Shown here: positions 22,216-24,633 of the stretch, piece after piece | Layout of the letters: each line of letters opens with the position of its first letter | Position numbering within the stretch: the stretch's first letter is position 1 | Sequence record: PP213477.1 | Source: Escherichia phage vB_Eco_ZCEC08 | DNA length: 47,926 nucleotides | Strand: one strand, 5' to 3' | Program-made: the position numbers and the translations under genes | Notes under the pieces: model-generated | Told to the model about the DNA's origin: nothing | Seen by the model: the letters and a program-made list of their open reading frames with translations, nothing else | The model's database searches: none

Positions 22216-22589
22216 TGAATATGCTTGAACTGGTTGATGCATATCTTCAGGATGCAGGATTGTACGATGGCTGGACTTCGCAGCTGCAGTTCTGGAATGA
22301 CACCGGAGATGGAAGTGAGCAATTTATTGTTCTGCAATCCAACGGTGGCACTCAGGTTATGGATGGCCTCGGCGGTGACTTCTATTTTTCGCTGTATGTT
22401 GTTGGCAAACAAGGCCAATACAATGTTGCTGATGTTGATTCGAAGGCCAATGAGATTATCGAATACATCAAAACACACCCGATTGATTCATGCGTTAACT
22501 ACATCCAGTTGCAAGCGCCACTTGGCAGGGCAATGCTGACGGAAGAAAAAAGACCAGTGCATGAACTGCTATTGCGTGTTGTGAAATAA
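22215..22589 (+). CDS. putative tail terminator protein
   Basis: 124 aa; last gene before the terminator and tail genes; call by position. Confidence 0.4.
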   Translation: MNMLELVDAYLQDAGLYDGWTSQLQFWNDTGDGSEQFIVLQSNGGTQVMDGLGGDFYFSLYVVGKQGQYNVADVDSKANEIIEYIKTHPIDSCVNYIQLQAPLGRAMLTEEKRPVHELLLRVVK

Positions 22590-22590
22590 A

Positions 22591-22616
22591 TAAAGCCGCA
22601 TGAAGCGGCTTTTAAT
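22591..22616. terminator. bidirectional rho-independent terminator
   Basis: AGCCGC-ATGA-AGCGGCT then TTTAATTT; abuts the 3' end of the minus-strand tRNA-like gene. Confidence 0.5.
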
Positions 22617-22617
22617 T

Positions 22618-22694
22618 TGGTGGACACGGACGGATTTGAACCTTCAATCAGCCGATTATTAGTCGGTTGCTTTAACCAATTAAGCTACGCGTCC
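22618..22694 (-). tRNA. tRNA-like gene, isotype undetermined (hand fold gives anticodon AAU)
   Basis: minus strand reads GGACGCG-TA-GCTT-AATTGGTTA-AAGC-A-ACCGA-CTAATAA-TCGGC-TGATT-GAAGG-TTCAAAT-CCGTC-CGTGTCC-ACCA: 7-bp acceptor stem (one G.U), 4-bp D stem, T-loop TTCAAAT, encoded CCA; one mismatch each in anticodon and T stems. Confidence 0.5.
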
Positions 22695-23192
22695 ATAAGT
22701 GCTGGTTTAAGCATTGCCAGCGTGCTTTCTTAACATCCAGCCCCGTAACCCATACATACCCCTACATATGATTGCGATAATGCTGGATATTAAGTGTTGT
22801 GGTGGCCGGTGCTGATCTCCGGCATAAGGCGCTTATTCGGCGGCGTCGAGCTTGCTTATTCGCTTGAGCCATCCTCGTGAGTCAGCCACGTCCCACTGCG
22901 CATCAGCCTGCGCATTCACCACAACGGAAAGAGCACTGATGCGCTCACTTGGGACTCCTTAGCCATAACCCACGGGCTTCTGGTACACCAATGCTCTTAC
23001 CTGTTGTGTTCCCTGACTTATTAATCACACCTCAGGGACGCAGTGCGCCGAATTTGTTTACAAGGAATCGGAAGACCTTGCTGACTTACAGGCTATTACG
23101 CCGCCATCAGAACAACATCATCGTTTGCATTTATCTTTGTGGTCAGTTTCTAAAAAGTCCGCAAAGTCGCTCACGAAAACTATCTGAAATAC

Positions 23193-23236
23193 AATCTACA
23201 CCACAAAATAATCGCTGTCAACACCTGTGATATAAT
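23193..23236. promoter_or_regulatory. back-to-back promoters: minus TTGACA-17-TAGATT and plus extended -10 TGATATAAT
   Basis: hexamers read directly; plus promoter precedes the major tail gene; minus promoter points into the non-coding region and tRNA. Confidence 0.45.
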
Positions 23237-23272: not shown

Positions 23273-23992
23273 ATGGCTATTTGTGCAAATGATAAAGGCG
23301 TTCTGGTCGGTCGCATGACCCGACTGTTCCTTGCTGAAGGGTGCGGCGACGCAGTTCCGGATGCAGGCGACTGGAAGTATTTAGGCTCAACCACCAGTAA
23401 AGGCGTTGACTACTCGCCGCAGACCACTACGTCGGAAGCGGATACCGCTGGCGGCTTTGTTTCTACTCTCGTTACCAGCTCTGATATGACCATCAGTGCA
23501 GAGGTAGAAATCCGCAAGAATGACCCGAGCGATGAGTTTGGCTTCCATCGTCTTGTTGAGATTTACACCACTGAACTGAAGGTTCGCCGCCAGCCTTCCT
23601 TGTGGGTGCGTCAGGTGACTGGTGCAACTATCGTTACCGCGTATTGCAACATCACCAGCATCAGCTACGAAGGTGGCACGAACGATATCGTTACTGGTAG
23701 CCTTGAGTTTAAGGTTTACGATTCTGACAGCGTTACCGTAGAAAGCCTTGAACCTCTGGCATTCACTACCGACCTGCAATCAACTGGCACGGCCGGAAGC
23801 CCGTTAACCGTTGCTGTTGAAGGTGGCGTTACTCCTTACACTTATGTATGGCGCAAAGATGGCGCAGTTGTTGGTGGTGAGTCTGGCGCATCTCTGGCAA
23901 GCCCTACCGCTGGCGTGTATACCGTCACGGTAACTGATTCATCTACCGACCCGGAAATTATCATCAGTACGGCGTGCACGGTATCCTCATAA
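23273..23992 (+). CDS. major tail protein with C-terminal Ig-like domain
   Basis: 239 aa; position before the tail chaperone and tape measure; C-terminal Thr/Val-rich Ig-like repeat. Confidence 0.6.
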   Translation: MAICANDKGVLVGRMTRLFLAEGCGDAVPDAGDWKYLGSTTSKGVDYSPQTTTSEADTAGGFVSTLVTSSDMTISAEVEIRKNDPSDEFGFHRLVEIYTTELKVRRQPSLWVRQVTGATIVTAYCNITSISYEGGTNDIVTGSLEFKVYDSDSVTVESLEPLAFTTDLQSTGTAGSPLTVAVEGGVTPYTYVWRKDGAVVGGESGASLASPTAGVYTVTVTDSSTDPEIIISTACTVSS

Positions 23993-24585: not shown

Positions 24586-24633
24586 AATCTACATCACCAC
24601 CCCGCAGGTGTCAACACCACTGAGATGATATAA
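24586..24633. promoter_or_regulatory. back-to-back promoters: minus TTGACA-17-TAGATT and plus extended -10 TGATATAAT
   Basis: same architecture as 23193..23236; drives the minus moron operon and the plus tail chaperone gene. Confidence 0.5.

Follow-up and report, generated by a model that had tools for sequence, protein, structure and literature searches.

Bacteria rescue stalled ribosomes and control protein quality mainly by trans-translation, a pathway that also influences how several phages grow, among them lambda-immP22 hybrids and Mu. To our knowledge, no phage factor that acts on transfer-messenger RNA (tmRNA) itself has been described. An exhaustive survey of tmRNA found viral ssrA only in mycobacteriophages of the Bxz1 group and in Bacillus phage G, with a fragment limited to the tRNA-like domain (TLD) in DS6A, and found none in enterobacterial phages (PMC4131195). 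Here, we describe an RNA element encoded by Escherichia phage vB_Eco_ZCEC08 (the source phage; record PP213477.1), the 47,926 nucleotides (nt) of which are called the window. The element, hereafter the module, is the first ~205 nt of the leader of a minus-strand transcription unit that ends with a tRNA gene (23182..22979, minus strand). Comparative analyses show the module to be a conserved, mobile and structured phage RNA that derives from the template region of tmRNA and carries a 5' arm antisense to the tmRNA of the host. It is almost certainly a functional RNA, and it probably acts on trans-translation in some way. From its 5' end, the module consists of the following parts.

23151..23182, minus strand: 5' arm UAGUUUUCGUGAGCGACUUUGCGGACUUUUUA, which makes up the initial 32 nt and is antisense to nt 68-107 of E. 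coli tmRNA
23129..23150, minus strand: linker and resume-codon context GAAACUGACCACAAAGAUAAAU, nearly invariant in a 54-sequence alignment of the family (alignment A1)
23093..23128, minus strand: tag template GCA AAC GAU GAU GUU GUU CUG AUG GCG GCG UAA UAG
23081..23110, minus strand: helix-5-like hairpin with the outer stem CUGA/UCAG and the stop codons in its loop
23048..23080, minus strand: pseudoknot A, stem 1 CAAGG/CCUUG and stem 2 CCGA/UCGG, 8 of 9 pairs changed on both sides
23010..23047, minus strand: pseudoknot B, stem 1 CGCAC/GUGUG and stem 2 UCCCUGA/UCAGGGA

The resume context GAAACUGACCACAAAGAUAAAU resembles that of the host, AGCCGCAAAAAAUAGUC, and keeps U at -5 and A at -4. The tag template encodes ANDDVVLMAA in 10 codons that are followed by two stop codons, and direct reading of the sequence finds no in-frame AUG, GUG or UUG between the upstream UAG and GCA. 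When Rfam was searched at relaxed thresholds, tmRNA models were the sole matches in the leader (tmRNA_permuted and beta_tmRNA, E = 1e-3), and they align on AUAAAU followed by GCAAACGAU...UAA. Their scores are below gathering (RF04321, 27 bits where gathering requires 47; RF01850, 18 bits where it requires 84); at the gathering threshold, the tRNA alone was matched and no tmRNA match was obtained in the leader. Relatives of the source phage carry the tags ANDDVVLIAA, ANDDVILMAA and ANEEMYLAVA. Across ~140 copies of the module there are more than 20 different tags, all of which are 10 residues long and follow the pattern AN[DE]xxx[LM]x[AV]A; they include ANDDLMMVAA, ANDNTFLAVA, ANDEQFLAVA, ANDSEVLMAA and ANDDYKLAAA. 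Synonymous changes at third positions occur among them (GCA/GCU, AAC/AAU, GAU/GAC). Codons 1-6 of the tag lie outside the stop-codon hairpin, and codons 7-10 overlap it. A mini-ORF in the +1 frame, MQTMMLF, was also considered as a coding candidate and was rejected because it is not conserved and the module of Cba120 lacks its AUG.

The hairpin and the pseudoknots downstream of the template covary. The stop-codon hairpin is present in 54 of 54 representatives with 98.6% of cells paired, and its stem takes forms such as CUGAU/GUCAG, CUGG/CCAG, UGGUA/UGCCA and CGAGU/GCUCG; in SE131, the tag residue Leu is replaced by Arg (CGA), and the 3' strand of the hairpin has a change that compensates for it. 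Pseudoknot A is found with UGAGG/CCUCA, ACGGGG/CCCCGU, CCAG/CUGG, CCAA/UUGG and GUCG/CGAC. In pseudoknot B, stem 1 varies among CGCAC/GUGUG, CGCAG/CUGUG, CGCAU/AUGUG and CGUAC/GUAUG, and at least 8 different complementary stems occur as stem 2. Covariation was counted in alignment A1 in the stop-codon hairpin, pseudoknot A (stems 1 and 2) and pseudoknot B (stem 1). In these helices, 97.5% of cells pair and 13 of 18 pairs are changed on both sides (122 cells). Values as high arose in 0 of 500 shuffles, and pairing in slid controls amounted to only 30-44%. The module is therefore organised like the mRNA-like half of tmRNA, in which the resume context and the template are followed by helix 5 and pseudoknots.

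The 5' arm is complementary to the tmRNA of E. coli, for which the K-12 sequence was used throughout. The span concerned, nt 68-107, comprises the 3' half of pseudoknot 1 (PK1), the resume codon and tag codons 1-6. The complementary blocks of the arm and of tmRNA are collinear, as listed here by position in tmRNA.

tmRNA nt 97-106: arm block UAGUUUUCGU (10-mer), facing ACGAAAACUA in tag codons 3-6
tmRNA nt 87-91: arm block GCGAC, facing GUC-GC across the resume codon
tmRNA nt 75-81: arm block UUUGCGG, facing the 3' strand of PK1
tmRNA nt 68-74: arm block CUUUUUA, facing the 3' half of PK1

Strict alignment of the arm to the reverse complement of tmRNA gave a score of 33, and 0 of 2000 shuffles scored as high, whereas the likeness of the module's sense part to tmRNA is no greater than that of shuffles in such an alignment. 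The arm matches the host better than it matches the equivalent region of its own module in 54 of 54 members (median scores 35 vs 14), and the complementarity of block 1 extends over 8-10 nt to the host and at most 6 nt to the module's own tag region. When the arm and the linker were cofolded locally with tmRNA nt 61-125, the median difference in free-energy change (ddG) was -16.9 kcal/mol, compared with -6.5 +/- 2.7 for random phage segments, of which 0 of 600 reached -17.3 kcal/mol. A local ddG of -12 kcal/mol or lower was obtained for 53 of 54 members and for 3.5% of the random segments. An unconstrained cofold of the whole module with the whole tmRNA picks the same duplex for the module of the source phage. 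More permissive procedures, gapped alignment and k-mer chaining, gave similar scores for other stretches of sequence and were superseded by the strict alignment with shuffles, the local cofold ddG and the host-versus-own comparison; RNAduplex on full-length RNAs was uninformative.

Which part of the antisense is kept differs between lineages. It reads GCGUCUAUUUU in the Felix-like arm and GUUUUCGUCACGUUAGCGAC / GUCACGUUAGCGAC at locus L047, and the arm of a Rosenbergiella prophage keeps GCGAUUGUUUUU, which forms 12 contiguous pairs with AAAAAAUAGUCGC of the host. Promoters in three contexts, namely the source-phage group, Felix O1-like phages and loci L048/L067, place the arm at the 5' end of the RNA; those at the module start in Felix O1-like phages (TTGACA-17-TAAGAT) and in L048/L067 are independent of that of the source phage. 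The 5' region is conserved in sequence and shows no internal covariation, whereas the downstream helices covary freely. Conservation of this kind is intelligible because pairing to an invariant external partner would give it.

The module has no tRNA-like domain, lacking a G3:U70 acceptor stem, a T-arm and a CCA end of its own. ARAGORN detected no tmRNA in the source genome, P1, HK620, Cba120 or 60 further loci, and a scan of the whole window for T-arms found none besides that of the tRNA. One 'tmRNA' that ARAGORN called in L031 was rejected, as it borrows the T-arm and the 3' strand of the tRNA and predicts an atypical tag, AKAVRLRKCSFRCGECAG. A module without an acceptor end could be the coding piece of a two-piece tmRNA, pairing with a separate acceptor piece to work as an independent phage tmRNA. 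The acceptor would then be a UCCA-ending 'frame' of the phage (described below), a phage tRNA or a processed host RNA, and the 5' region would be an analogue of PK1 acting in cis. Natural permuted tmRNAs do split their coding and acceptor pieces, and the permuted model is the best Rfam match of the module. Moreover, directly upstream of the module several prophages carry a UCCA-bearing tRNA-like element that has a T-arm, about half of the copies adjoin co-oriented tRNA genes, and the 5' region can be drawn as an H-type fold in cis. However, this fold has 1 pair changed on both sides, equal to shuffles, and so is without covariation support. The promoter abuts the module in the source phage, and the module region of HK620 contains no tRNA at all. 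No tRNA-like frame has G3:U70, the upstream UCCA element possesses both acceptor strands of its own, and ARAGORN is tmRNA-negative in ~100 loci save for the dubious call in L031. We therefore regard an independent two-piece phage tmRNA as unlikely.

We propose instead that the module may be a mobile 'tag-swap' RNA of enterobacterial phages and prophages, which would replace the tag template of the host and accomplish rescue through the tRNA-like domain of the host and SmpB. The arm would anneal to host tmRNA and cover the host resume codon, and the phage strand would leave the duplex at its PK1-proximal end, which is the normal start of the host template. The host tRNA-like domain and SmpB would then bring the phage template to stalled ribosomes. 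As a result, the stalled ribosomes would be released, and the tag at the end of their products would be (A)ANDDVVLMAA in place of the host's (A)ANDENYALAA. Processing sites (RNase P, 3' trimming) that free the module may be given by the tRNA-like frames downstream and by the tRNA, in which case the freed RNA would run from near 23185 to near ...CACAACAGGU. We put the probability of such a tag swap at about 0.3, and that of the full template-swap model, in which host tmRNA is bound, its tag template masked and the phage template offered, at 0.3-0.35.

Several observations weigh against this proposal. The ddG of the whole-molecule cofold is unremarkable for the modules of P1, HK620, Felix-like phages, SE131 and VLCpiP4b (-3 to -9 kcal/mol, compared with a null of -5.4 +/- 3.7) and is exceptional only for the source phage and Cba120. 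A 45-nt duplex-energy test against a genome-wide null was not discriminating (p ~0.08), and the 10-mer alone is not significant across the 496-nt leader (34 of 300 shuffles). The arm also has partial complementarity (CUUUG:CAAAG, GG:CC) to upstream sequence of the module itself. A PK1-like fold in cis is therefore possible, and the resume codon would in that case, too, be preceded by a pseudoknot. For pairing with the host, stem 2 of host PK1 has to open, and the conserved 22-nt linker is left without a role in the model. All hosts belong to the Enterobacterales, whose tmRNA we take to be essentially the same across this stretch, so that co-variation between the phage arm and host tmRNA offers no test. 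In addition, the family members share descent, and counts across them are therefore not independent. Finally, we know of no precedent for a tag template that is given in trans by base pairing.

The complementarity of the arm and its statistics would also fit an RNA that is nothing but an anti-tmRNA. The arm would then be an antisense inhibitor or sponge that blocks the tagging and degradation of phage proteins, and the tag-like segment would not be decoded; its retention would be owed to a structural role or to action as a decoy for proteins with affinity for the template region of tmRNA, such as S1 or the SmpB tail. Phage RNAs directed with a 5' seed against small RNAs (anti-sRNAs) exist, namely AgvB and AsxR (PMC4104026). 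Because codons 7-10 of the tag overlap the stop-codon hairpin, their 'coding' conservation could be partly structural. Codons 1-6, however, are outside the hairpin, and there the changes are synonymous or conservative and AN[DE] is kept. Furthermore, the template always has 10 codons and then stops, with UA kept at -5/-4, and a pure antisense RNA needs neither these features nor two pseudoknots. An anti-tmRNA without a decoded template thus seems improbable to us, and the tag swap remains the reading that we prefer.

The module is widespread. A blastn search with the ~200-nt module found it in 625 phage records of very different kinds, including P1, HK620, Felix O1-like phages, Ackermannviridae, Klebsiella phages and many siphoviruses. 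The same search found it in 656 of 5426 E. coli genomes (12% of complete genomes), where 554 sites are on plasmids (many P1-like in size) and 150 on chromosomes. The matched segment is mostly unannotated in either collection, and nowhere is it annotated as RNA. A loose-pattern search of genome contigs returned 40 matches, five of which were confirmed as module-bearing prophages of Enterobacterales (two in Rosenbergiella and one each in Pseudocitrobacter, Erwinia and Pantoea); a Klebsiella match was not confirmed. The settings of four well-known carriers are as follows.

P1: after Pban and the 'dicF-like region', ~370 nt upstream of tRNA-Asn/Thr; tag ANDDLMMVAA
HK620: between pR'/qut and the late terminator (pR'-tR' leader); tag ANEEMYLAVA
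Cba120: in a 2.1-kb gene-free gap; codons GCU AAU; tag ANDNTFLAVA
Felix O1-like phages (Sf13, ekra): inside a tRNA array, with the promoter TTGACA-17-TAAGAT of its own; tag ANDNVFLAVA

The Felix O1-like module ends 3 nt before tRNA-Arg. The frequent adjacency to tRNA genes suggests shared expression and processing with no fixed partner. In P1 (L039, 1393-1578), the annotated 'dicF-like region' has a terminator-like end, and the module follows it immediately. The Pban promoters, which C1 controls, lie upstream, so that two host-RNA-related elements of the ban leader stand in tandem before tRNA-Asn and tRNA-Thr. In Cba120 (L041, 840-2400), a member of the Ackermannviridae, several tRNA-like elements that bear T-arms and end with UCCA or CCCA lie beside the module; one of them has G3.A70, and ARAGORN calls none of them.

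The rest of the leader in the source phage is also built of modular structures, which are listed here in the order of transcription.

22926..23008, minus strand: 'frame' hairpin CACAAC-AGGU-AAGAGCA-(variable insert)-UGCUCUU-UCC, inverted repeat I3
22796..22925, minus strand: second module, with variable cargo, inverted repeat I6
22702..22795, minus strand: third module, a 13-bp helix (inverted repeat I4) directly upstream of the tRNA

The helix of the frame covaries, being AAGGGCG/CGUCCUU in P1 and AAUAGUA/UACUAUU in L022. The inserts of the frame carry a T-arm in L064, L093 and L155, and the frame is also seen in L047. In other phages the frame is a tRNA-like element, the 3' strand of which is followed by UCCA directly before the next module. 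We infer that such frames may be tRNA-like punctuation for RNase P and 3' processing. The second module has a 9-bp closing helix, GUUGUGGUG/CACCACAAC, and two hairpins with the complementary loops GCUGA/UCAGC. Its frame occurs with different cargo in HK620 (L040, ~1750-1870) and at other loci, a compensatory variant GCGUA/UACGU is found in L046, and the frame alone is present in 1359 of 5426 E. coli genomes. When the variable inserts ('cargo') were checked for antisense to host genes, only the conserved frame was matched, and this solely in prophages and P1-like plasmids. A Klebsiella phage, VLCpiP4b (L166, 271-360), has an unannotated tRNA-like gene with normal acceptor, D and T arms and the end ACCA, in which the anticodon arm is replaced by AGGAGAGCUUCGAAAGAACAAGGUGCCU, the cargo of the HK620 second module. 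The third module, which may form an H-type pseudoknot (AAGCA..GCUGG..UGCUU..CCAGC), is confined to the group of the source phage, with 139 phage records that are mostly at least 95% identical.

The heptamer CACAACA stands twice in the leader at conserved module ends (23002-23008 and 22795-22801, minus strand), and GU-rich partners (GUUGUGGUG) are in the vicinity. In work on the phage anti-sRNA AgvB, this heptamer is given as the consensus that the R1 seed of GcvB targets (PMC4104026). The recurrence of this motif, the array of modular frames with exchangeable cargo, the frequent association with tRNA genes and the mixed whole-molecule thermodynamics would all suit a function unrelated to trans-translation. 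The RNA might be a scaffold for processing or stability of tRNA operons, a sponge for other host RNAs or a protein-binding RNA, and its likeness to tmRNA would be ancestry, left by an inverted duplication of a captured ssrA fragment. Neutral decay, however, should erode both arms alike, whereas the antisense arm has stayed host-like and the sense part has diverged. In addition, the tag pattern and the reading frame are kept across very distant phages. We hold an unrelated function to be rather unlikely, though somewhat less so than either an independent phage tmRNA or an anti-tmRNA alone.

The tRNA gene at the end of the unit is a separate component.

22618..22694, minus strand: tRNA of 77 nt with anticodon AAU, an Ile-type body and encoded CCA, called tRNA-Ile(AAT) by ARAGORN

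The original prediction for this locus had folded these 77 nt by hand into a cloverleaf with a CCA end and the anticodon AAU, and this is a real tRNA according to both ARAGORN and the covariance model of Rfam: the cloverleaf is complete and scores 62.1 bits with RF00005, the gathering score of which is 29. The same prediction had offered a remnant of a tRNA-derived attachment site as one explanation. Phages often integrate into tRNA or tmRNA genes. The completeness of the 62-bit cloverleaf with its encoded CCA, however, does not support a remnant, and a comparison with host tRNA genes gave no blastn match of this tRNA in 5426 E. coli genomes. Moreover, sister phages have at the same locus either the same gene with anticodon CAU or other tRNAs (Ser-GCT and Arg-TCT; Met/Arg), and the body is akin to phage tRNA-Ile, being ~80% identical to tRNA-Ile(GAU) of Pakpunavirus. 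An attachment-site origin is consequently very improbable.

The sole difference from the tRNA(CAU) of Bas80 is a change of C34 to A. Because the body resembles phage tRNA-Ile and only C34A separates it from the Bas80 gene, the gene is, on sequence grounds, an Ile-type tRNA in which position 34 varies among phages. The AAT form is present in 76 records at 99% identity or more, and is therefore not a sequencing error. By analogy with the established biology of tRNA-Ile2, the CAU form of the sister phages is probably modified with lysidine and reads AUA; in the source phage, ATA makes up 18.5% of Ile codons, and AGA is frequent as well. The AAU form cannot be lysidinylated and, by Watson-Crick pairing, should read AUU only. 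The C34A change may be neutral, adaptive (for example, as an escape from anticodon nucleases; cf. PMC10264068) or a loss of function. In a series of records named 'Salmonella phage seszw' (MZ3752xx / OL9647xx), in which genomes shrink from 45.9 to 36.5 kb, the third module is kept in all and many keep the AAT tRNA as well. The locus seems to survive genome reduction in this series.

The 47,926-nt source genome is that of a siphophage (~47.7 kb), and the region is 99.9% identical to Escherichia phages HC6, 6947 and HC8A; related phages are Bas77-81, swi2, Akira, Sf11, STGO-35-1 and IME207. The unit is flanked and bounded by the following features.

ends at 22589, plus strand: tail-terminator gene (PF23842, E = 2e-40)
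22612..22592, minus strand: intrinsic terminator, inverted repeat I8 (8-bp stem; T-runs on both strands)
23221..23193, minus strand: sigma-70-type promoter TTGACA-17-TAGATT (10/12 in a consensus scan)
23273..23992, plus strand: major tail gene

The locus is one transcription unit inserted backward between the tail-terminator and major-tail genes, two structural genes of the plus strand, and its order is promoter, ~490 nt without a conserved ORF, tRNA and terminator. A processed array of non-coding RNA and one tRNA is the best explanation of its output. The minus-strand unit of promoter, long non-coding leader and tRNA that had been proposed is present in all its parts, with a terminator in addition. 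The TTGACA-17-TAGATT promoter was recovered by the scan, and both of its hexamers are kept in 20 of 20 aligned relatives; the predicted start of transcription is near 23185, with the sequence GAUAGUUUUCG.... Among the options that had been offered, a structured non-coding RNA is correct for the leader, as judged from the covarying hairpin and pseudoknots, but neither the tmRNA-like tag template nor the antisense arm figured in that account. A long inverted repeat that it had pointed out does exist, with the core GCGCATCAG/CTGATGCGC at 22898-22906 and 22936-22944; it is a minor feature and is not conserved in relatives, because one of its arms falls in a variable insert. The two direct copies of CTTATTCG that it had noted are likewise present (GCTTATTCG twice, at 22831 and 22854), and we judge them to be incidental, since by a rough estimate made without a tool an 8-9-mer repeated once per 500 nt is about what chance would give. 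Hexamers and spacing identical to those of the promoter (TTGACA-17-TAGATT) are found again at 24614..24586 on the minus strand, before three small minus-strand ORFs, which form a second backward-facing unit within the plus-strand block of tail genes.

The view that the leader holds no credible ORF has proved largely right. A plus-strand ORF of 93 amino acids at 22949..23230 could nevertheless encode a small protein, as annotated in some relatives. The ORF exists and has a weak match to phrog_26260 (E = 1e-6), and some records annotate a 'hypothetical protein' under the module match. However, the reading frame is broken in 26 of the 54 family members, the start codon is TTG and Pfam gives no match; substitutions track the compensation of minus-strand base pairs, and most records annotate nothing there. 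A plus-strand protein is accordingly a highly implausible product of the locus, and phrog_26260 (46 aa, unknown function) probably consists of spurious ORF calls over this RNA in many phage genomes.

With its anti-tmRNA arm and its tmRNA-style tag template, the element may be a phage factor that acts on tmRNA. If the template swap is true, it would be the first trans-acting re-programming of trans-translation and the first natural tmRNA made up of one RNA from the host and one from a virus. In that case P1, HK620 and therapeutic candidates such as Felix O1-like phages and Ackermannviridae would manipulate ribosome rescue and proteolytic tagging, and lysogens of prophages that carry the module in the pR' leader might tag proteins differently all the time. 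Whatever its mechanism, the element defines a new RNA family, readily open to testing, that could be added to Rfam and to phage annotation; it accounts for many of the 'empty' gaps beside phage tRNA genes and flags spurious families of small ORFs. Rfam 15 contains no family for it, and no description of it was found in the searchable full-text literature.

Among described RNAs, GOLLD and ROOL resemble the leader as long structured phage RNAs beside or among tRNAs, modular and with variable inserts. They differ in size, sequence and hosts, and neither has a tag template; their covariance models gave no match in the leader even at E <= 10. The anti-sRNAs AgvB and AsxR share with the module a 5' end complementary to a conserved regulatory RNA of the host, and, like the module of HK620, they are encoded downstream of pR' in lambdoid prophages (PMC4104026). 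However, they are 51-60 nt long, bound by Hfq, equipped with their own terminator and without template function (PMC4104026), whereas the module is ~200 nt long, highly structured, predicted to target tmRNA and placed inside a longer transcript with no terminator of its own.

Other likenesses are found within the tmRNA family; conceptually, its two-piece members and the prophage anti-sRNAs come nearest to the module. The phage tmRNA genes and the DS6A fragment are phage-borne derivatives of ssrA, and in DS6A one half of tmRNA is kept, which is thought to interfere with the trans-translation of the host (PMC4131195). The tmRNAs of phages are complete and that of DS6A is limited to the TLD, whereas the module is the complementary half, consisting of the template only. 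In the two-piece tmRNAs of alpha- and beta-proteobacteria and cyanobacteria (RF04321, RF01850), the template likewise resides on an RNA separate from the acceptor/CCA end, to which it is joined by pairing. There, a single precursor yields the two pieces, which are paired by P2-type helices; for the module, the window contains no cognate acceptor piece, and the complementarity detected is only to the tag-template region of host tmRNA. With tmRNA itself (SsrA, RF00023) the module shares the resume context, a short start-less tag AN[DE]...[AV]A, tandem stops, the stop-codon hairpin and H-type pseudoknots after it. It differs from tmRNA in being encoded by a phage, in lacking a tRNA-like domain, in carrying an antisense 5' arm and in having two small pseudoknots where tmRNA has three after helix 5. 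The element thus appears to be related to tmRNA and yet to fall outside it, as it lacks the defining tRNA-like domain, and a template swap, if true, would be categorically new.

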